This document shows, piece after piece, positions 4,876 to 54,220 of a stretch of DNA of 55,324 nt. The DNA is from a bacterium (lineage in GTDB: Bacteria; Bacillota_I; Bacilli_A; RF39; UBA660), in contig JAHZGA010000003.1 in assembly GCA_019421005.1 (NCBI GenBank), positions 1 through 55,324 of the forward strand, given 5' to 3'. Every line of letters starts with the position of its first letter. Position 1 is the first letter of the stretch. The notes beneath the pieces are model-generated. The model saw only the letters and a list, made by a program, of their open reading frames with translations, was not told the origin of the DNA and searched no databases. The position numbers and the translations under genes are program-made.

Positions 4876-5223
4876 AATATTTTATAAGCCATGTTCTGTA
4901 CCTATTTCTAGGCGACAAACATCTATCTATGAATTAAATTCATCCCATAACCAGTTCTTATTCCCAGTTATTAGGCTCCCCTACCATAATTTGGGTTTCT
5001 CGCTCGTGGGGTTTACCGCGTTCCACTTTTTTAATTTCTTAAAAAAATCGTCACTATGGCACTTTATGTCTAATTTGACCATATCAATGACTTAGGTCAT
5101 TTCGACGCCGTTAGTTAAAAACTACCATAAGTTATTTTTTCCTTATGCACGAACACTACCATCATCACAGATGGTGCGAGCATGGACTTTCCTCTATATT
5201 TCTATAGCGTTTGTCAAAATATT
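4876..5223 (-). ncRNA. rnpB: RNase P RNA, type B (Bacillus-like)
   Basis: The minus strand carries universal and type-B blocks: GAGGAAAGTCCATGCTCGCAC, AAAGTGCCATAGTGACG, GTGGAACGCGGTAAACCCCACGAGCGAGAAACCCAAAT..GGTAGGGG, ATAGATAGATG..TGTCGCC, ACAGAACATGGCTTA. P1 can form between AATATTTT (5' end) and AAAATATT (3' end). Ends are accurate to about 5 nt. Confidence 0.9.
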
Positions 5224-43811: not shown

Positions 43812-44063
43812 TTAAGTCAATACTTTTTCACGATTTTCTTTAGATTTATTATTAACAATGTCTTGTCTTTTTATAGGTTTTATATTACTTTTATTTGTTT
43901 CTTTTATCTCTTCAAAAGCGTAATATTTTTTGATTATTTTAATTATCTCATCATTATCTTTTTTAGTAATAGTTCCTGTTTCAGTATTTTTGACACTTCT
44001 TCTTGCTTTTTTAGATTTGTTTTTATCATTACTTAAATGTAATGAATAAGATAATTCTTCCAT
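43812..44063 (-). CDS. Hypothetical small basic protein (83 aa)
   Basis: ORF from the ATG at 44063 (MEELSYSLHL...). Lys-rich, with a weak SD and no recognisable domain. Confidence 0.35.
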   Translation of the reverse strand: MEELSYSLHLSNDKNKSKKARRSVKNTETGTITKKDNDEIIKIIKKYYAFEEIKETNKSNIKPIKRQDIVNNKSKENREKVLT

Positions 44064-46806: not shown

Positions 46807-48894
46807 TTACACCTTCCTATAACTTTTATGACCTTTCATAATTTGTTTTATTCCATGAGGATGTTTAAAGGCAATAGTAAGAATTGATTTATCTACACCG
46901 ACTACTATTCCTTCACCATATTTATCATGTATTACATGGTCACCAACTTTATATTCAATAGTTTTATCAATCATTATTTCTTTTTTAAATTTATTTGTTA
47001 ATAATACTCTATCACTTTCTAGATATTGCGTATCTATTTCTTTGACAAATCTACTTATTGGGTTAAAGTTAGTATTTCCAAATAATATTCTTTGTTTGGC
47101 ACTTACTAGATATAAATTCTTTTTAGCACGTGTTACTCCAACATAACATAGTCTTCTTTCTTCTTCAAGTTCATCATTAGCTTCAAAAGATTTACTACTT
47201 GGAAAAACACCTTCTTCTAGTCCAACAATAAATACATTATCAAATTCTAATCCTTTAGCAGCGTGCAAAGTCATTAAGGTAACAACTTCTTTATTTTGTT
47301 TATGTTCATCAATATCACTTACTAAAGATATTTCCATTAAAAATTCATCTAACATTATTATACCATTGTTTTCTTCAAATGTTTTTGTTATTGATTTAAA
47401 TTCTTCTAAATTTTCTAATCTTACTAAAGATTCAATTGTATTTTCACTTTCTAATTCTTGTCTTAATCCACTTAATTTTAATACAGCTTCTACAATTTCG
47501 GTTAAAGAACTTGTTTCTTTTAATTGAATTAACTCATCAATTAAATTTTTGAATTGTTGTTCTTTTCCCGAAGAAATAACTTCATAAATACTTTTTTTAT
47601 CACGTGTTGCTAAATCTATTAATTTTTCAATTGTTTTTAAACCAATTCCTCTTTTAGGAACATTTATAATTCTTAATAAATTTAAATCATCATCTTGATT
47701 ATAAATAACTTTTAAATAGGCAATTAAATCTTTAATTTCTTTTCTATTATAGAATGAAAACCCACCAATAATTTTATAAGGTATATTTTCTTTTAATAAA
47801 GCTTCTTCTATATTTCTTGATTGAGCATTAGTTCTATATAAAACTGCTATTTCATCTATTTCTTCGCCATTTTTAATTAATTTTTTTATTTCTTTTACTA
47901 CATAAGTAGCTTCATCTTTTTCATCAATAGCTTGATAATGTTTTATTTTAGAACCTACATCACTATCTGTCCAAAGTTTTTTTTCTTTACGACTTTTGTT
48001 ATTAGCAATTATATTATTAGCCGCATTTAATATATTTTGAGTTGAGCGGTAGTTCTTTTCTAATTTTACTACTTTAGTATTAGGATAGTCTTTTTCAAAG
48101 TTTAAAATGTTTTTATAATTGGCACCTCTCCATGAGAAAATGGTTTGATCAGGATCTCCTACTGCACATATATTTTTATTTTTAGCAACTATCATTTTAA
48201 TTAAAATATATTGAGCTTCATTAGTATCTTGATATTCATCAACTAAAACATATTTGTATTTTTGTTGATATTTTTGCAAAATTTTAGGATTATTTTTAAA
48301 TATTTTTATTGGCATTATAAGTAAGTCATCAAAATCAAAAGAATTGTTTATTTTTAGTTTTTGTTGATATTTTTGATATACTTTTAATACTACTTCTTCA
48401 AATTCGCTATTGACGTATTTTTCATAATTATATTCATCTATTAATTCGTTTTTAGCCCCGCTAATTCTACTTTTTATAGCTTTAGGATTATATATTTTAG
48501 GATCTAATCCCAAATCTTTTAGTATTCTTTTTATTAATGTTAATGAGTCATCACTGTCAATAATAGTAAAATTGCTTTTATAGTTTAATAAATCATAGTT
48601 TTCTTTTATTACAATAAGACCAAAGGCATGAAAGGTTGATATTTGCATATTATATGCAATAGGTCCAATAATTTTTACTAATCTATCTTTCATTTCTTTA
48701 GCTGCTTTATTAGTAAATGTTATAGCTAAAATGTTTTCTGGATTAATGTTATTTTCAATTAAATAGGCAATTCTAGTGGTTAAAACTTTGGTTTTACCAC
48801 TTCCTGCCCCAGCTAAAACTAATAGAGCACCATCAATTGTTGTTACAGCTTCTAATTGTTCTTTGTTTAAATTTTCAATGTTAGTCTTTAACAT
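46807..48894 (-). CDS. pcrA: ATP-dependent DNA helicase PcrA (UvrD family)
   Basis: Motifs AGAGSGKT, VDEYQDTN, TLHAAKGLEF. The ATG at 48894 (MLKTNIENLNKEQLEAV) matches the usual PcrA N-terminus. The track start 48906 is TTG. Confidence 0.95.
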   Translation of the reverse strand: MLKTNIENLNKEQLEAVTTIDGALLVLAGAGSGKTKVLTTRIAYLIENNINPENILAITFTNKAAKEMKDRLVKIIGPIAYNMQISTFHAFGLIVIKENYDLLNYKSNFTIIDSDDSLTLIKRILKDLGLDPKIYNPKAIKSRISGAKNELIDEYNYEKYVNSEFEEVVLKVYQKYQQKLKINNSFDFDDLLIMPIKIFKNNPKILQKYQQKYKYVLVDEYQDTNEAQYILIKMIVAKNKNICAVGDPDQTIFSWRGANYKNILNFEKDYPNTKVVKLEKNYRSTQNILNAANNIIANNKSRKEKKLWTDSDVGSKIKHYQAIDEKDEATYVVKEIKKLIKNGEEIDEIAVLYRTNAQSRNIEEALLKENIPYKIIGGFSFYNRKEIKDLIAYLKVIYNQDDDLNLLRIINVPKRGIGLKTIEKLIDLATRDKKSIYEVISSGKEQQFKNLIDELIQLKETSSLTEIVEAVLKLSGLRQELESENTIESLVRLENLEEFKSITKTFEENNGIIMLDEFLMEISLVSDIDEHKQNKEVVTLMTLHAAKGLEFDNVFIVGLEEGVFPSSKSFEANDELEEERRLCYVGVTRAKKNLYLVSAKQRILFGNTNFNPISRFVKEIDTQYLESDRVLLTNKFKKEIMIDKTIEYKVGDHVIHDKYGEGIVVGVDKSILTIAFKHPHGIKQIMKGHKSYRKV

Positions 48895-49081
48895 CAATAA
48901 CAACAACCTTACTAGTCTTTTTTTTGGTAAATTTATTTTTTATAAACATAATTAACCATACAATAGCTATAACTATAATTAAAAATACAAAAGCATAAAA
49001 AGATAAAATTAAGAAAATAACTGCAACAGCTATTACAAATATATATATCAAAATTAATTTTAATTTATCTAAATTATTCAT
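48881..49081 (-). CDS. Small membrane protein (66 aa, two TM segments), first gene of the pcrA operon
   Basis: Strong SD AAGGAGGG before the ATG at 49081. It overlaps the pcrA start by 14 nt. Confidence 0.55.
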   Translation of the reverse strand: MNNLDKLKLILIYIFVIAVAVIFLILSFYAFVFLIIVIAIVWLIMFIKNKFTKKKTSKVVVIDVKD

Positions 49082-49103
49082 ATCTTACCCTCCTTTCTAT
49101 ATT

Positions 49104-49132
49104 ATTATACCATGTATAATACTTTATTACAA
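49104..49132 (-). promoter_or_regulatory. Candidate promoter of the small-protein/pcrA/galU operon (TTGTAA-17-TGgTATAAT)
   Basis: TTGTAA at 49132-27, 17-nt spacer, extended -10 TGGTATAAT (hexamer at 49109-04). Confidence 0.5.
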
Positions 49133-49273
49133 TTGATTATTGTATAAATAAACATTGGTTATTTTTCTTATAATAAGGTAGCATTTCTATCTGAATAATT
49201 ATTTAATATTAAAACATTTATATGTAATTAACATCTTAAGATAAGGTTATTTTTATTACTTCGTATTAGTTAT

Positions 49274-49302
49274 AAAAAAAAAATAGGAATTAATCAATTC
49301 CC
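49274..49302 (-). terminator. Strong intrinsic terminator (GGGAATT-GATT-AATTCC + T10)
   Basis: Minus-strand hairpin at 49286-49302 followed by ten T. It would end the transcript from the module-L promoter about 115 nt upstream. Confidence 0.75.
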
Positions 49303-49368
49303 ATTAAAAATTATAGAAAGTAGGTGATACTTATGATAGAAAAAATATTTCTTTCATATGTATCACTT

Positions 49369-49497
49369 GTGTTCAATTTACTTGAACAACTATATCATAC
49401 CATATTTTTTTAGTACATTTCAAGTATTTATTTATATTTAGATTAAAAAATATTCTCTATATGTATATGTTTTTTTATTTTTGTTTTAAAATATAAC
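49369..49497 (-). repeat. Promoter/leader module, copy L (degenerate, A/L subtype)
   Basis: Aligns by eye with 51811-51925 (cttg..catatcata..ttcaagtatttatttatattta.attaaaaa.t.ttctctatatgtatatgttttt). Confidence 0.6.
49394..49423 (-). promoter_or_regulatory. Module-L promoter (TTGAAA-18-TGgTATGAT)
   Basis: TTGAAA at 49423-18 and TATGAT at 49399-94, preceded by TGG. Confidence 0.5.
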
Positions 49498-49732
49498 ATT
49501 GGTAATAATAAATCTAAAGATAATTTTAATAAATATTGACTTAAATATATATACAGTAGTTACTGAAATAATTATTAAAAAGTTTGATTTGTTAAGTTTA
49601 ATAAATTGAAAAACAAATAACTTGGTTACAAAAAATATGGCTTTGATAAAAAAGTGGCAAAAAAGCGGCAAAAATTTTTTGAACAACTATCACTCTATTA
49701 TCTTTTCAAAGATAGTAGATAGGAGTGATTTA

Positions 49733-50956
49733 ATGAGAAAAGATGTAAGTAATGAAATTATAAGAATAGGAGGTGATAGTATTAATAAAAGTGAATTGGC
49801 AAGAATCATGGGATGTTCAAGACAAACAATTTATAATCGTGAAGAAAGATTGAAAAATCCCAAACCTAGAAAAAATATTGTTAGATCAAGTAAACTTGAT
49901 CCATATAAGGAAATAATAGATACTAAAGTGGATAAATATCATAGTAAAGCCATGAATGTTTATAAGTTCATAAAAAAGCAAGGTTATACTGGAGGATATG
50001 GGATAGTCAGAAACTATGTTAAATCGCATAAAAATGAGCAAATAAAAAAGGCAACAATAAGATTTGAAACCATACCAGGATTACAAGCACAAGTAGATTG
50101 GAAAGAATCTATGAAATTAGTAAATAAACACGGTGAAGTATATGAAGTAAATATATTTCTCATAATACTAGGTTATTCAAGGTATAAATATATTGAATTA
50201 ACTAGTGATAGAAATCAAAATACACTATTCAAATGTATGGTTGGAGCTTTCGGATATTTTAATGGTTGCCCCAAAGAAATATTATTCGATAATATGAAAA
50301 CTGTTGTAGATAAAGCAAGAACAACTATAACTAATGTCGTATTTAATAAAAGGTTTGAAAGTTTTAGTAATGATGCAGGTTTTACACCTATAGCTTGTAT
50401 TGGATATAGACCTAAAACCAAAGGAAAAGTTGAAACTCTAGCAAGAATAATGGAAAGATTAAGACCTTATAACGAAGAGTTTGAGACTTGGGAAGATTTA
50501 GATGCAATAGTAAAAGAAATAAACGAAGATATAAACAACGAGGTTGTTCAAGGTGTAAATATTATTCCAAATGAAATTTATGAAAAAGAAAAAGAGTATC
50601 TTAATCCTCTACCATTATGGGATAGACTAATTAATTACTATGAGCCAGAAAAAACTTATAAAGTATCTAAAGAGTCTATGATAACATATAAAGGAAAAAA
50701 ATACTCAGTTCTAACGTATCTGATAAGTAAACAAGTTACTGTAACAGAAATTGATTCCAGAATCAATATATATTATAACATTACAGACTTTATTTGCCAA
50801 CATGAGATGAGCAACAAATATTTAAATTATCATGAAAGTGATTTAAAAGAAATAATGAAAAGCGAAGCATATAGAAATAAAACAGATGAAGAAATACAAG
50901 AAATAATAGAATTAAAAAAGAAAGATAAATTGTTAGGAGTGAAAATAGATGAATGA
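49733..50956 (+). CDS. istA: IS21-family transposase IstA
   Basis: N-terminal HTH (SELARIMGCSRQTIYNRE) and a DDE integrase-like core (QVDWKE..., FDNMKT...). The ATG at 49733 has SD AGGAGTG. Confidence 0.9.
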   Translation: MRKDVSNEIIRIGGDSINKSELARIMGCSRQTIYNREERLKNPKPRKNIVRSSKLDPYKEIIDTKVDKYHSKAMNVYKFIKKQGYTGGYGIVRNYVKSHKNEQIKKATIRFETIPGLQAQVDWKESMKLVNKHGEVYEVNIFLIILGYSRYKYIELTSDRNQNTLFKCMVGAFGYFNGCPKEILFDNMKTVVDKARTTITNVVFNKRFESFSNDAGFTPIACIGYRPKTKGKVETLARIMERLRPYNEEFETWEDLDAIVKEINEDINNEVVQGVNIIPNEIYEKEKEYLNPLPLWDRLINYYEPEKTYKVSKESMITYKGKKYSVLTYLISKQVTVTEIDSRINIYYNITDFICQHEMSNKYLNYHESDLKEIMKSEAYRNKTDEEIQEIIELKKKDKLLGVKIDE

Positions 50957-51710
50957 ATATAATAACTTATTAAATAATTTGGAAGTATTAAAATTAGAAA
51001 AAATGAGAAGTTTTTTACCAAATTATTTAGAAGAAATAACAAACAAAAAAATACCATTTCAAAAAGCGTTTTTGAAATTAACCAACAAGGAAATAGAATA
51101 TAGGAATGAAAGAGCCTCAAAAATTCAAATAACTGTATCTGCTTTTCCTTATGAAAAAGAATTAAAAGACTTTGATTTTGATTATCAACCATCGATTGAT
51201 AAAGATAAGATAGAAGATTTAAACACTTTACGATTTTTAGAAAAACATGAAAATATATTGTTTGTAGGGTCAAGTGGTGTCGGTAAGACACACTTGGCTA
51301 CAGCAATTGGAGTAACTGCTGCTAAAAAAAGATATTCAGTATATTTTATATCATGTCATGATTTGATTACACAATTAAATAAAGCTCATTATGAAAATAA
51401 ATTAGAAAATAGAATAAAACATTTTTGTAGATATGAATTGTTAATAATAGACGAAATAGGTTATCTTCCTGTAGATAAACAAGGAGCAAATTTATTATTT
51501 CAATTGATAGCAAAAAGATATGAGAAAAGATCTACAATAATAACTACTAATATGACTTTTAGTAAATGGGGGGAAGTGTTTAGTGATAATACATTAGCTA
51601 ATGCAATTCTTGATAGATTGCTCCACCATTCACATGTAATTAATATAACAGGTAATTCATATCGAATAAAAGATAAAATAGAACAACTTGAAAATACACA
51701 AAAAAGATAG
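50949..51710 (+). CDS. istB: IS21-family helper ATPase IstB
   Basis: Walker A GSSGVGKTHLA and Walker B LLIIDEIGY. It overlaps the istA stop by 8 nt, as is typical. Confidence 0.93.
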   Translation: MNEYNNLLNNLEVLKLEKMRSFLPNYLEEITNKKIPFQKAFLKLTNKEIEYRNERASKIQITVSAFPYEKELKDFDFDYQPSIDKDKIEDLNTLRFLEKHENILFVGSSGVGKTHLATAIGVTAAKKRYSVYFISCHDLITQLNKAHYENKLENRIKHFCRYELLIIDEIGYLPVDKQGANLLFQLIAKRYEKRSTIITTNMTFSKWGEVFSDNTLANAILDRLLHHSHVINITGNSYRIKDKIEQLENTQKR

Positions 51711-51789
51711 ATATATACCTGTCTTGAATATAAAGAAGTGTCCAACTTTGAAATTGACATTTTTGTCCAAAAAATCATTGACATTTACA

Positions 51790-51925
51790 CTTTTTTTATT
51801 TTATGCAAGTTTCCTTGCTAAATACATCATATCATATTTTTTTTATTTCTTTCAAGTATTTATTTATATTTAAATTAAAAAGTGTTCTCTATATGTATAT
51901 GTTTTTTGTTTTTATTTTAAAAATA
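51790..51925 (-). repeat. Promoter/leader module, copy A (truncated by the IS21 insertion)
   Basis: ctttttttattttatgcaagtttccttgctaaatacatcatatcatattttt is shared with copies B and C. Homology breaks exactly at the IS end. Confidence 0.7.
51826..51855 (-). promoter_or_regulatory. Module-A promoter (TTGAAA-18-TGaTATGAT)
   Basis: TTGAAA at 51855-50 and TATGAT at 51831-26. Confidence 0.5.
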
Positions 51926-51928
51926 CAA

Positions 51929-51957
51929 TTGACACTCGAAAATATGTTTGGTACAAT
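51929..51957 (+). promoter_or_regulatory. Near-consensus sigma-A promoter (TTGACA-17-TGgTACAAT) driving the small hydrophobic peptide ORF
   Basis: TTGACA at 51929-34, 17-nt spacer, TACAAT at 51952-57, preceded by TGG. Confidence 0.6.
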
Positions 51958-52029
51958 TGTTTTAAGGAACATTTAATAAAGTTGGGTGTTATCTATTTTC
52001 TATAAAATAATAGAAAGTGGGTGATGTTT

Positions 52030-52128
52030 ATGATAGAAAAAAATTTTTCTTATCAAATAATAAGTTTTTTATTAACAGTAATAAAAATGCTTATGGCATT
52101 GCTTATTATTATAGCAATTAAACTGTAA
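52030..52128 (+). CDS. 32-aa hydrophobic peptide (type I toxin-like candidate)
   Basis: MIEKNFSYQIISFLLTVIKMLMALLIIIAIKL has a single TM. SD AGAAAGTGGGTGAT lies upstream, the promoter about 73 nt upstream, and a hairpin 10 nt after the stop. It is below the ORF-track cutoff. Confidence 0.45.
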   Translation: MIEKNFSYQIISFLLTVIKMLMALLIIIAIKL

Positions 52129-52137
52129 TAATAAGTA

Positions 52138-52168
52138 AGCACCTAAATCATCATTTGAATTAGGTGCT
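52138..52168. terminator. Shared hairpin (agcacctaa...ttaggtgct) between the convergent peptide mRNA and the module-B transcript
   Basis: 9-bp GC-containing stem plus a closing pair. U-tracts are weak on both strands. Confidence 0.55.
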
Positions 52169-52258
52169 ATTTAAAAACTTTAAATCATTAGGTAGCACCC
52201 AACATGTAACTATTAGATGTTCCTTTTTTTATTTTATGCAAGTTTTCTTGCTAAATAC

Positions 52259-52287
52259 ATCATATCATATTTTTCTGCTTTTTTCAA
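52259..52287 (-). promoter_or_regulatory. Module-B promoter (TTGAAA-17-TGaTATGAT)
   Basis: TTGAAA at 52287-82 and TATGAT at 52264-59. Confidence 0.55.
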
Positions 52288-52352
52288 GGTGATTATTTTT
52301 TTATTGATAATTACCGTTTTCTATATGTTTATTGTTTCTTACAATAATAGTA

Positions 52353-53090
52353 TTAATTATCTTCTAGAAAATAATTTACTAGTTTTTCATAATTATCTTG
52401 ACTATTTAAACAAGTATCTATTAAATATCCTCTTTCATTATTTATTTGATATTCTTTAATACCTCTTATATAAAAATCTTTGTTTCTATCTTCAATAAAG
52501 AAAGGCATTATATCATTGTATAAACATTCTCTAAATATTATCATTCTTCCGATACGCCCATTTCCATCTTGAAAAGGATGGATACGTTCAAATCTAACAT
52601 GAAATTCAATAATATCTTCTATTGTTTTATTATCTATTTTATCATACCATTTTAATAATTCTTTCATATCAGTTGCAACATTACTTGGTAATGATGTAGT
52701 AATATTGCCAACAAAGTTACTTTTCTTTTTATACTCACCTACATTAAACCATTCTTTTTCATTATCAGTTAAAGTACCTTCTTTTAATATAAAATGAAAT
52801 TTTTTTATCATATCTTCAGATAATTTATCATCAATTGTATCTAACATATACTTAAACAAAGTAAAATGATTTTTTATTTCGGTGGCATCTTTTAAAACAA
52901 TTACTTTATTTTTATTAGCTAAAATTGTTCCAGTATCATAAATACTTGCGGTTTCATCAGGGGTTATTGTAGAACCCTCAATATGATTTGTGTTATAGGC
53001 AAAATCAATTTGAGTTTTATGATAAAGACTACCTGATAAACCAATATTTTTTTGTTCAATTAAAGCATTCTTTATTTTTTTTACTTCCAT
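52353..53090 (-). CDS. Fic-domain protein (putative AMPylase) with an N-terminal auto-inhibitory motif
   Basis: Fic motif HPFQDGNGRIGR. TNHIEG matches the [ST]xxxE[GN] inhibitory helix motif. SD AAAGGAGG. Confidence 0.9.
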   Translation of the reverse strand: MEVKKIKNALIEQKNIGLSGSLYHKTQIDFAYNTNHIEGSTITPDETASIYDTGTILANKNKVIVLKDATEIKNHFTLFKYMLDTIDDKLSEDMIKKFHFILKEGTLTDNEKEWFNVGEYKKKSNFVGNITTSLPSNVATDMKELLKWYDKIDNKTIEDIIEFHVRFERIHPFQDGNGRIGRMIIFRECLYNDIMPFFIEDRNKDFYIRGIKEYQINNERGYLIDTCLNSQDNYEKLVNYFLEDN

Positions 53091-53139
53091 TTTTTTACCT
53101 CCTTTAAAACTTTAACTATAATTTTTCAAATAATAAGTA

Positions 53140-53170
53140 AGCACCTAAATCAGCATTTGAATTAGGTGCT
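53140..53170 (-). terminator. Leader hairpin (candidate attenuator terminator) in the Fic 5' leader
   Basis: AGCACCTAA..TTAGGTGCT stem followed by TACTTATTATTTG. The upstream GGGTGCTACC can alternatively pair with TAGCACC of the 5' arm. Confidence 0.5.
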
Positions 53171-53258
53171 ATTTTAAAATTCAATATTACAGGTAGCACC
53201 CAACATTGCACTATTAGATGTTCCTTTTTTATTTTATGCAAGTTTTCTTGCTAAATAC

Positions 53259-53287
53259 ATCATATCATATTTTTTGGCTTTTTTCAA
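53259..53287 (-). promoter_or_regulatory. Module-C promoter (TTGAAA-17-TGaTATGAT), probable Fic promoter
   Basis: TTGAAA at 53287-82 and TATGAT at 53264-59. No better promoter is visible between the hairpin and the Fic SD. Confidence 0.55.
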
Positions 53288-53332
53288 GGTAATTATTTTT
53301 TTATTGATAATTACCGTTTTCTATATGTTTAT

Positions 53333-54220
53333 TTAATTGCCTTTGATAATAACAGTATTATCAATAACATTGTCTTTAAGTTGACTGCATTTTCCATCAT
53401 CTTTGCTAATTTCAAACTTTAATATCGATGTCATATTTTTACTACTATAAAAATAATAATCTGTATTATAGTCTTCACTATAATAATGATTTAATTTTAC
53501 ACCGTTTTTATTTTGAAATGCTTTAATATTGATATCTTTTTTAGTTAAATTAGTATAATATTTTTTAGCTTGTTCTTTTTGAGTTGTTTTTCTATTTAAT
53601 CTATATTCATCAGTTAATGTTAAAGTAAGATAACAAATATTGTCATTATCATTATATTGAAAAAGTACTTCTGTATAATGATATTTTCCTTTTTTATAAC
53701 TATTGAAACTTGGATTTTTTAGTTCTGGTATATTATTATATTCTAATTTTAATCTTTCAACATTTTTAGAACTTAAATTTAGAAACATTAATCCAATTAA
53801 TAATAGTAATATTTCTATAACATATGTTAATACAACCGTAACAGCACTTGTGCCTCCTTTTACCTTACAAATTTGTTTTAATTCATCCATATCAGAGTTA
53901 GGATTATTTTTAATTATTTCATCTATTTTTTCATTACAAATATTTAAATATTCTTGTTTAAAATTAAATGATAAAACAATATTAACTATTGGTACAGCAT
54001 AAGATAAAAGGAATAAATCAGGGAAAAATATAACTAAAACATAATTTATTATTGATAATAAAGTCAGTATTATACCCATCGAATAACATTTGCGGTATAA
54101 CAAATATAAACTTCCAAAAGCAAATAAATTCCATGAGAATTTTCCACGAGTAAATTCTTTATAATTATTCCCTACATAAGATTTTAATAACTCTTCTCTA
54201 TTGATTATTGTTTGTTCCAT
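53333..54220 (-). CDS. DUF2628-like membrane protein with a C-terminal soluble domain
   Basis: FSWNLFAFGSLYLLYRKCY plus following TM segments is the pattern recalled for DUF2628. The start is uncertain (ATG 54220 or TTG 54235). Either way it overlaps the upstream gene. Confidence 0.65.
   Translation of the reverse strand: MEQTIINREELLKSYVGNNYKEFTRGKFSWNLFAFGSLYLLYRKCYSMGIILTLLSIINYVLVIFFPDLFLLSYAVPIVNIVLSFNFKQEYLNICNEKIDEIIKNNPNSDMDELKQICKVKGGTSAVTVVLTYVIEILLLLIGLMFLNLSSKNVERLKLEYNNIPELKNPSFNSYKKGKYHYTEVLFQYNDNDNICYLTLTLTDEYRLNRKTTQKEQAKKYYTNLTKKDINIKAFQNKNGVKLNHYYSEDYNTDYYFYSSKNMTSILKFEISKDDGKCSQLKDNVIDNTVIIKGN

Follow-up and report, generated by a model that had tools for sequence, protein, structure and literature searches.

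A candidate family of antisense small RNA genes convergent with hydrophobic peptide genes in uncultured gut Bacilli, with a putative type I toxin-antitoxin-like role

We have analysed a stretch of 55,324 nucleotides (nt) from a bacterium of the lineage Bacilli_A, RF39, UBA660 (contig JAHZGA010000003.1 of assembly GCA_019421005.1), which is called the window below and in which a repeat occurs four times on the minus strand, as copies L, A, B and C. Judged from its sequence, this repeat is a small RNA (sRNA) gene family belonging to a toxin-antitoxin-like module, and not a promoter/leader cassette placed at the boundaries of gene cassettes. It should probably be the gene of a cis-encoded antisense sRNA of ~115-125 nt, the putative antitoxin of a module of the type I toxin-antitoxin (TA)-like kind. 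The architecture of the module, which like its conservation, covariation and promoter and terminator signals is observed in silico, is held with high confidence, while a toxin-antitoxin function is considered likely by analogy with known systems.

Four promoters and four copies in the window

The earlier note on this DNA had described four copies of a unit in which a strong promoter, TTGAAA-17/18-TGnTATGAT, is followed by a 5' stem-loop, and all four are found where it had placed them. A scan for TTGAAA-N14/15-TG-N-TATGAT returns exactly four matches in the 55-kb window, all on the minus strand, while the number expected from 100 dinucleotide-preserving shuffles is 0. That is, the observation in the window is real and does not arise by chance. 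The promoters are as follows.

49394-49423, minus strand: promoter of copy L (pattern scan)
51826-51855, minus strand: promoter of copy A (pattern scan)
52259-52287, minus strand: promoter of copy B, TTGAAA-17-TATGAT with an extended -10 TG
53259-53287, minus strand: promoter of copy C, TTGAAA-17-TATGAT with an extended -10 TG

The 5' stem-loops are seen both by reading the sequence and in the alignment of the copies. Copies B (52127-52333) and C (53129-53333) are direct repeats spaced 1000-1002 bp apart with an identity of 92.8% (194/209 aligned columns), which agrees with the earlier estimate of nine in ten positions over about 205 bp, and they share the leader AAGGAACATCTAATAG...GTTGGGTGCTACCT and the hairpin AGCACCTAA...TTAGGTGCT as described. 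The hairpin upstream of both copies is also present; it had been placed after the stop of the preceding gene, but it is not the terminator of a preceding minus-strand gene, since its T-rich tail lies on the plus strand and it should therefore be read as a plus-strand terminator.

Copies A and L, which had been grouped as a second subtype, have 130 nt in common at 79% identity, and their upstream 68 nt agree at 91%. The likeness holds for the upstream region and the promoter only: the transcribed part of A (stem-loop and A-rich linker) is of the B/C type, and L stands outside the RNA family, as the covariance model described below finds no match there.

An intact locus: copy B and the peptide gene facing it

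At copy B the module appears to be complete, with the following features.

51929-51957, plus strand: putative toxin promoter, TTGACA-17-TACAAT, 11/12 matches, joint highest in the scanned region
~51964 to 52029, plus strand: putative toxin 5' untranslated region (UTR), with the family 5' motif GGAACATTTAATAAAGTTGGGTG at 51966-51988
52030-52128, plus strand: putative toxin open reading frame (ORF) of 32 amino acids (aa), MIEKNFSYQIISFLLTVIKMLMALLIIIAIKL, hydrophobic, with the Shine-Dalgarno (SD) sequence GGGTGAT at 52019-52025
52127-52253, minus strand: sRNA gene of copy B, putative antitoxin, covariance model score 75.8 bits, E 6.2e-12
52288-52315, plus strand: predicted terminator of the toxin mRNA, hairpin GGTGATTAT-N10-ATAATTACC followed by GTTTTCTAT, just past the promoter of sRNA B

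The earlier note had correctly placed B opposite a small peptide ORF, which converges on B and whose stop codon abuts the 3' end of B; the plus-strand promoter was absent from its account, and so was the antisense relation of L to the start of a second, decayed copy of the peptide gene. The peptide resembles the MTKREKVLYAIISLLFILIFVILFK subgroup of the family introduced below. The predicted toxin transcript starts as AAGGAACATTTAATAAAGTTGGGTGTTATCT at ~51964, and this start is a same-sense copy of the B/C leader, so that the two copies form an inverted repeat in the DNA. The spacer of the toxin promoter reads GAAAATATGTTT (51938-51949), one mismatch away from a Cheo-box-like site.

Both transcripts are predicted to be highly structured. 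The B RNA folds at -32.0 kcal/mol (z -4.9). For the plus-strand RNA 51962-52330, the prediction is -106.2 kcal/mol (z -10.7), with the first ~30 nt paired to the complement of the second hairpin of B and with the terminator hairpin formed. Taken together, B is the putative cognate antitoxin gene of this intact locus, and the ORF at 52030-52128 is the putative toxin.

The only match in the window at the Rfam gathering score is the class B RNase P RNA at 4880-5222 (minus strand, 296 bits). This match and the GC content of 19-31% place the window in a low-GC Bacillota/Mollicutes-like lineage, which is consistent with the hosts of the family.

Occurrence and layout of the module in relatives

We have scanned 185,579 species genomes for the toxin 5' motif with the pattern GGAACATYTAATA-N1-9-GTTGGGTG, and obtained 118 loci (L001-L118), of which one (L104) is an evident chance match inside a gene. 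The remaining loci belong to metagenome-assembled genomes (MAGs) labelled as uncultured Bacilli, Erysipelotrichaceae, Tenericutes, Mycoplasma, Bacillales and, in some cases, Muribaculaceae, recovered from the guts of humans, mice, rabbits and ruminants, and all hosts are uncultured. The same 5' motif has no match among 2.9 million viral contigs, and a metagenome scan for the MIEK-type toxin start region returned 0 matches.

The layout is the same throughout the family. The 5' motif directly follows a TTG-N17-TATAAT promoter, which puts the predicted transcription start at (A)GGAACAU, and downstream of it come a conserved 5' hairpin, a hairpin burying the SD, and an ORF for a peptide of ~27 aa such as MNKKDFLILSLVIIIFLLLFLLFIVLI. 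The peptides (25-33 aa) form one family, with a KKD head and a nearly pure hydrophobic helix. Behind the peptide gene stand a hairpin shared by both strands and the convergent sRNA gene, which has four hairpins, an extended -10 promoter and a U-tract: in 87/93 loci with enough flank, the reverse complement of the sRNA GGAACA is found 172-236 nt downstream (mostly 205-223).

On the sRNA strand of the relatives, a -35 box and an extended -10 box are followed by a 5' hairpin that is variable yet keeps pairing (GCAAGAAAACUUGC, AUGAAGGAAACUUCAU, GAUGGAGGCAACUCCAU and others), the linker AUAAAAUAAAAAA, a second hairpin GGAACAYUYAAUA-loop-UGUUGAGUG, a third one that is variable, and a terminator hairpin CCACCUAA...UUAGGUGG running into UUUCUUUU.

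We have further sorted the 103 assessable sRNA copies by what they face. In 78/103 this is a converging 5' motif with an ATG-started hydrophobic ORF, in a further 12/103 the 5' motif with a non-ATG start, and in ~5/103 a hydrophobic ORF with a divergent 5' motif; the remaining ~8/103, including copy C of the window, are orphan or decayed. Overall, the module recurs in more than 100 gut Bacilli genomes, and ~95/103 copies face the antisense of a peptide gene and no co-oriented gene, so that it should not be regarded as a leader for a downstream gene. The wording "promoter/leader" or "portable regulatory cassette" of the earlier note is accordingly not supported, while its other wording, an sRNA gene family, agrees with a unit that has its own promoter, a 5' hairpin, covarying hairpins and a U-tract terminator on its own strand.

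Each contig carries one to three copies, and several MAGs hold tandem or multiple loci. Tandem toxin/sRNA loci, two or three per contig, are seen for example in L092 (3663-4623), L068 (2206-3000), L050 (2504-3470), L042 (1487-2430) and L054 (4793-5271), where divergent subfamilies and decayed copies stand side by side.

Two further observations concern the surroundings of the loci. In 52/114 distinct toxin promoters, a Cheo/LexA-box-like element [GA]AAC-N4-GTT[TC] occupies a fixed position in the spacer between -35 and -10, covering the 27th to the 16th nt before the toxin 5' motif, compared with a background of 0.7% per 60 nt; this position and frequency suggest that the toxin could be under SOS control. 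Besides, in ~18/60 loci scanned (coordinates compared by eye), the sRNA gene is preceded at a distance of 46-144 nt by a co-oriented tRNA or transfer-messenger RNA (tmRNA) gene, as in L010 (7160-7245), L011 (629-715), L022 (2012-2365, tmRNA), L036 (2896-2972), L040 (5362-5435), L042 (2476-2549) and L063 (5846-5919). These tRNAs are of many identities, and the module tends to sit 3' of tRNA genes in the manner of island-like insertions; no tRNA gene was found in the window.

Structure, covariation and predicted termination of the sRNA

A covariance model was built from 71 sequences and searched in the window and in 99 loci. It finds 105 sRNA copies with scores of 41-134 bits, and in the window only B (75.8 bits) and C (79.6 bits) are full members. 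In the alignment fitted to this model, 87.7% of the cells pair and 22/31 pairs show double-sided changes; the covariation score is 0.242 versus at most 0.067 when the partners are slid, and the observed values were reached by 0/500 shuffles. An independent MAFFT/RNAalifold alignment recovers the second hairpin (SL2) and the terminator. In this alignment the inner stem of SL2 has no broken pair, and of its two outer G-C pairs one fails in 2/71 sequences. In addition, several pairs of SL2 are G-U, which means that the fold is specific to the sRNA strand.

The hairpin between the two genes is shared by both transcripts, and its flanks tell which of them it ends. At least seven T in the 10 nt after the hairpin are found on the sRNA strand in 83/87 cases and on the toxin strand in 0/87. 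With a U-tract on the sRNA strand alone, this hairpin is expected to terminate the sRNA and not the peptide mRNA. An analogous symmetric arrangement of A-run, hairpin and T-run ends 40-50 nt past the sRNA 5' end, around the -35 box, in ~25/99 copies with enough upstream sequence, and would end the peptide mRNA in those copies. A search for toxin-strand terminators past the sRNA promoter returned hairpins in 40/99 loci, and in 41/99 on the other strand; the two numbers are equal in effect because the hairpin is symmetric, and a bidirectional terminator appears to be supported in only a subset of the loci.

In ~25 loci (e.g., L009, L022, L044 and L066), the sRNA -35 hexamer, TTGACA or TTGTAA, itself sits in the loop of the symmetric hairpin AAAACGACTTTTTGACAAGTCGTTTT, which is flanked by an A-run and a T-run and thus has the form of a bidirectional terminator overlapping a promoter.

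Three arms of the module share their sequence changes. In B and C, the 3' arm of SL2, UUGGGUGCUA, can pair without mismatch with the terminator 5' arm, UAGCACCUAA, which gives a 1:2 / 2:3 / 3:4 layout; the 2:3 pairing is possible in several subfamilies, and in the main family it carries an A-C mismatch (read by eye from the consensus). Across subfamilies, the terminator arm varies in step with the 3' arms of the toxin 5' hairpin and of the sRNA SL2 (variants GGGUGGA, GGGUGC, GAGUACU, GAGUGCU and GGAUGUC), which indicates that the three compete for one partner, namely the terminator 5' arm.

Proposed mechanism

From these features we infer the following course of transcription, decay and toxicity. 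Transcription of the toxin would start at the conserved (A)GGAACAUUUAAUAAGUUGGGUG, which would form a weak, G-U-rich 5' hairpin, followed by the sequestered SD and by the ORF for a peptide of 27-32 aa with a charged N-terminus and a hydrophobic helix. The hairpin after the stop codon would be common to both transcripts. Since it is predicted to terminate only the sRNA, the toxin mRNA would read on through the whole sRNA gene and end near the sRNA -35 box, so that ~120 nt of its 3' UTR would be complementary to the sRNA. SL2 of the sRNA is a same-sense paralogue of the toxin 5' end; this 3' UTR should therefore be complementary both to the sRNA and to the first 22 nt of the toxin mRNA itself. 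The full-length toxin mRNA would be closed by the resulting 5'-3' pairing with its SD buried, and hence inert, while abundant sRNA would form a duplex of ~120 bp with the 3' UTR, leading to cleavage and decay specific for double strands and/or to refolding of the 5' part, and the peptide would not be made. In this scheme the repressive direction of control and the toxicity of the peptide are assumptions taken over from the class.

Folding predictions are in line with the closed state. In the minimum-energy fold of the full-length toxin mRNA, long-distance 5'-3' pairing is predicted in 91/91 distinct loci. We have also considered a direct attack in trans on the toxin 5' UTR, as in the par system. 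RNAduplex gives a mean of -32.3 kcal/mol for the sRNA with its cognate toxin 5' UTR versus -23.1 kcal/mol (sd 4.1) for shuffled sRNAs. With intramolecular structure allowed, however, the net gain in RNAcofold is only ~3-8 kcal/mol, and because this gain is too small, such an attack was not adopted as the main mechanism.

On the other hand, several points weigh against reading the repeat as the antitoxin gene of such a module. The loci were gathered through the toxin 5' motif, and consequently the toxin-facing rate is biased upward, the 5' motif itself could not vary, and orphan sRNA genes are under-sampled. The pair counts come from an alignment fitted to the model, and helices 1 and 3 pair in only ~70% of the cells, partly owing to register problems. 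The predicted 5'-3' closure is a direct consequence of the inverted repeat, and depends on the mRNA being transcribed past the shared hairpin. By titrating the element that closes the mRNA, an sRNA might in principle switch the toxin on instead of repressing it. The four peptides compared with Pfam and NCBIfam match no known toxin family, the best match being HokA with E 0.12 and 12.4 bits versus a cut-off of 89. Within the window, copy C has no convergent peptide gene, and a BLAST search with the L region and the 158-bp stretch between L and the insertion sequence (IS) described below finds no L-type locus among all the fetched loci, so that L is unique to the window.

A more elaborate reading joins several of these elements. 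In it, the sRNA would have arisen by inverted duplication of the toxin 5' leader and would mimic this leader, competing for the 3' UTR lock and for the terminator 5' arm. An attenuator-like quartet of toxin 5' arm, SL2 and both terminator arms would then switch between a short terminated sRNA and a read-through antisense RNA covering the whole toxin ORF; many members would be SOS-inducible through a LexA-type operator, and the RNA of copy L would act in trans as an antitoxin directed at the ribosome-binding site of toxin B. As a whole, we hold this combination to be a tentative one, with a rather low probability.

Relation to known systems

Database searches return no known family for the module. 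In Rfam 15, the window has no relevant match (best E ~7 for 49000-53600), and the four typical loci searched give only tRNA and an S15 leader, so the Rfam search proposed earlier assigns no family to the repeat. Pfam (E up to 10) and NCBIfam give nothing significant for four peptides, an exact look-up of 10 peptides in a collection of 15 billion proteins found 0, and nothing on type I systems in these lineages was found in the literature searched.

The known type I systems are almost all from cultured Proteobacteria and Firmicutes, and standard annotation misses them. According to a 2025 paper (PMC12390103), Proteobacteria, Firmicutes and Tenericutes are the only groups from which they have been reported to date. 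Three traits of the type are recognizable in silico here: a small (<60 aa), mostly hydrophobic membrane peptide (32 aa in the window, 25-33 aa in the family); an antisense RNA with its own promoter and terminator that is complementary to the toxin mRNA; and a toxin mRNA fold that, by thermodynamic prediction, blocks translation (z -10.7 in the window; 91/91 loci). In Gram-positive type I systems, the genes of toxin and antitoxin sRNA converge, and the sRNA is encoded 3' of the toxin (PMC8594479). The layout found here matches this organisation in its hydrophobic peptide, convergent 3' antisense RNA, strong antisense promoter, buried SD and multiple copies.

A simpler explanation takes the product of the small ORF as a harmless small membrane protein and the convergent sRNA as its ordinary antisense regulator; the architecture would then be right, with no addiction or killing involved. 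This explanation agrees with the lack of a toxin-family match for the peptides and of any association with phage contigs found, and many small single-helix membrane proteins are indeed non-toxic. However, the locus joins several marks of type I toxins, namely a tight multi-layer lock with the predicted burial of the SD and 5'-3' closure, a strong, constitutive-looking antisense promoter, tandem multi-copy loci, decayed and orphan copies, and an SOS-box-like operator in many toxin promoters; the peptide, besides, is nearly a pure hydrophobic helix with a KKD head. We therefore regard it as unlikely, and compare the module below as a type I-like candidate.

In bsrG/SR4, txpA/RatA and related systems of B. 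subtilis, the sRNA acts through RNase III-dependent decay and remote refolding of the ribosome-binding region. Like the module here, they have a convergent sRNA 3' of the toxin (PMC8594479), a small hydrophobic peptide and a strong antitoxin promoter. The differences are that no sequence or profile similarity is found, that the sRNA here covers only a few nt at the stop codon of the ORF, and that it apparently lies wholly inside a long toxin 3' UTR and carries a paralogue of the toxin 5' end. By sequence, and by an antisense RNA that ends at the stop codon instead of overlapping the 3' part of the ORF, the module falls outside the TxpA/RatA and BsrE/G/H families.

In the par system of pAD1, direct DNA repeats make the sRNA complementary to the translation-initiation region of the toxin. 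Fst/RNA II of par and SprA1/SprA1AS resemble the module in their convergent genes with an sRNA that does not overlap the ORF (PMC8594479), in a 3'-side hairpin present in both transcripts, and in repeats that link the sRNA to the toxin 5' region. Unlike par, the repeat here is inverted and the RNAs carry same-sense copies, and for this reason the sRNA resembles the toxin 5' end rather than complementing it. Moreover, the peptide has no Fst signature, and only one strand of the shared hairpin is followed by a U-tract. With no Pfam Fst_toxin match at E up to 10, no Rfam match and no direct-repeat complementarity, the module is not placed in the Fst/RNA II family.

A 5'-3' lock of the mRNA is the defining trick of the Gram-negative systems hok/Sok and aapA1/IsoA1. 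There, as predicted here, the full-length mRNA is locked by its extreme 5' end and a 3' element, and the SD is buried (PMC6733600). The antisense RNA of those systems is directed at the 5' part of the mRNA, which becomes active on 3' trimming, whereas here the sRNA covers the 3' locking element; they are also Gram-negative, the hosts here being Bacilli of a Gram-positive lineage, and no homology is seen. The HokA match given above is below threshold, which leaves the module outside the Hok/Sok family as well.

The SOS-controlled systems tisB/istR-1, dinQ/agrB and symE/symR of E. coli are comparable through the GAAC-N4-GTT(T/C) between the -35 and -10 boxes of many toxin promoters here. This element resembles the LexA (Cheo) box of Gram-positive bacteria. 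It is only putative here and degenerate in the window (GAAAATATGTTT), and the organisation and sequences of the systems are unrelated. Overall, we have filed the module as a candidate new family of the type I TA-like kind, with the twist that the sRNA would resemble the toxin 5' end and cover the element predicted to close the mRNA.

Copy C and the Fic gene

The second full copy of the window stands next to a Fic gene.

53288-53315, plus strand: hairpin upstream of C, GGTAATTAT-N10-ATAATTACC, adjoining the C -35 box, T-rich tail on the plus strand
53129-53253, minus strand: sRNA gene of copy C, orphan duplicate, covariance model score 79.6 bits, E 1.2e-12
52348-53128, minus strand: portable Fic unit, coding sequence 52353-53090 with the HPFQDGNGRIGR motif and ~38 nt of its own upstream sequence; Pfam Fic 2e-17

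Copy C has all parts of the sRNA gene, i.e., the 5' hairpin (SL1), the A-rich linker, SL2 (GGAACAUCUAAUA/UGUUGGGUG), the variable SL3, and the terminator hairpin with a U-rich tail, and its RNA is predicted to fold at -32.7 kcal/mol (z -4.2). The hairpin upstream of it is a duplicate of that of B, and there is no toxin gene for it to terminate here.

The Fic unit is wedged between C and B. As the earlier note had it, C stands before Fic. The unit starts flush with the end of C at 53128, Pfam confirms the Fic domain, and on the far side 14 nt separate the unit from the start of B. In 35 metagenome Fic loci (L121-L155), which match the window with 76-90% DNA identity and 62-91% aa identity (74-91% in most), the homologous DNA extends exactly from 53128 to 52348, the flanks are different in every other genome, and none of the 35 loci carries the module. 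Fic is thus considered a portable gene that became lodged between two module copies here, e.g., by recombination through the module, and copy C, with 93% identity to B, may be the orphan duplicate that arose in this event. The pairing with Fic is unique to the window, and the proposal that the repeat marks cassette boundaries is not borne out by the relatives.

A promoter scan finds no promoter-like site between the C terminator and the SD and start codon of Fic. The Fic gene therefore probably depends on read-through from the C promoter, the only one upstream of it. This situation is one argument for a competing reading in which the unit is a portable promoter with a cis-acting leader, an attenuator or riboswitch for a downstream gene such as Fic, with SL2 and the terminator as alternative structures; the complementarity of UUGGGUGCUA and UAGCACCUAA and its possibility in several subfamilies would fit it too. 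Against this, the DNA past the terminator is the antisense of a peptide gene in nearly all copies and not a co-oriented ORF, the module accompanies 0/35 Fic relatives, the main family has a mismatch in the 2:3 pairing, and no Rfam riboswitch or leader family is matched. A riboswitch or attenuator is expected upstream of the controlled gene, on its strand, and to be conserved there in relatives, and this placement is not what we see. Such a leader is quite improbable, and the antisense sRNA gene remains the preferred reading of copy C.

Exact look-ups for sister strains free of the IS found no record of Fic, PcrA or the 300-aa protein with TTG starts, and with corrected starts they returned only short contigs of one sample that break at the repeat. 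One other assembly, L120 (Logan contig SRR13060987_20663), is the only one with the 295-aa neighbour protein; it ends 29 nt past the gene, where C begins, as would be expected if short-read assemblies break at the module repeat.

Copy A and the IS21 element

51790-51855, minus strand: copy A, promoter 51826-51855 with SL1 and A-rich linker of a B/C-type sRNA gene, cut at 51789/51790
49655-51789, plus strand: IS21-family element of ~2.1 kb, istA 49622/49735-50956 and istB 50949-51710

Copy A matches the covariance model partially, with 21 bits over SL1 and the linker only. Its interruption by IS21, claimed earlier, is seen as a junction at 51789/51790, and its remaining sequence identifies A as a putative third copy decapitated by the element. 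The IS21 proteins match Pfam rve and IstB_IS21 (3e-81), and the element ends in the imperfect terminal inverted repeats TGGCAAAAAAGCGGCAAAAATTTTTTGAACAAC and TGTAAATGTCAATGATTTTTTGGACAAAAATG, which contain reiterated AATGTCAAT and AAAAAAG(T/C)GGC motifs and are unrelated to the module. No target-site duplication is found (left AAAAAAG, right CTTTTTT). This implies that the rest of A was not simply displaced to the other side of the IS, and that a rearrangement followed the insertion.

An IS next to one copy, direct repeats flanking Fic, and the accessory character of the patch raise the question whether the repeat is itself the end of a mobile element, such as a miniature inverted-repeat transposable element (MITE), an IS terminus or an integron-like recombination site. 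The earlier note had named a MITE or IS terminus as the finding that would overturn its claim, and we have checked for it: neither terminal inverted repeats nor target duplications flank the copies, and copy numbers are not high, with one to few copies per genome that always keep a fixed register with the peptide gene. Furthermore, the inverted repeats of IS21 bear no relation to the module, the internal hairpins covary as those of an RNA would, and the viral contigs hold no match. A mobile-element end is thus very improbable, and the repeat is better taken as an sRNA gene.

Copy L and a decayed second copy of the putative toxin gene

49276-49423, minus strand: copy L, A-like promoter 49394-49423, predicted RNA of ~112 nt (49387-49276)
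49307-49413, plus strand: remnant of a second toxin gene, SD and ATG (49333), with a frame (MIEKIFLSYVSLVFNLLEQLYHTIFF) that runs into the L promoter

The predicted L RNA consists of a 5' hairpin GUUCAAGUAAAUUGAAC, a segment antisense to a toxin start, and a strong terminator, GGGAATT-GATT-AATTCC followed by T10, and folds at -32.4 kcal/mol (z -6.8). The segment is the antisense of the SD, the start codon and the first ~18 codons of the decayed toxin gene, for which no convincing plus-strand promoter is seen. The region 49307-49350 is 86% identical to the start region of toxin B (52004-52047). L has the look of a sister locus that lost its toxin through a deletion, by which the sRNA promoter came to stand directly before the antisense of the toxin start.

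When the L RNA and the toxin-B start region are folded together, the prediction is -65.9 kcal/mol versus -50.1 kcal/mol for the two folded apart, with a continuous duplex of more than 30 bp. Since this predicted duplex covers the SD and AUG of toxin B, the L RNA may act as a second antitoxin, in trans, that silences toxin B.

Just downstream of the L terminator, at 48881-49081 (minus strand), lies a strongly hydrophobic ORF of 66 aa (MNNLDKLKLILIYIFVIAVAVIFLILSFYAFVFLIIVIAIVWLIMFIKNKF...) with its own promoter, TTGTAA-17-TATAAT at 49132-49104, and no Pfam match. On the other side of L, in the 158-bp stretch between L and the IS (49497-49654), the first 48 nt have an 86% inverted match at 43812-43860.

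Significance

In this work, a candidate family has been defined in full, from the toxin promoter, the 5' leader, the peptide and the shared hairpin to the four-hairpin sRNA and its promoter. It occurs in at least 100 species-level genomes of uncultured gut Bacilli with small genomes, for which no RNA family model existed, and a covariance model and precise predicted transcript ends are now available. The window itself would record a short history of such a module: a live locus, a duplicate captured as the promoter of Fic, a copy that IS21 destroyed, and a rearranged remnant. With an sRNA that is paralogous to the toxin 5' end, the family should offer a clean test case of how antisense control directed at a 3' UTR may act on a distant ribosome-binding site.

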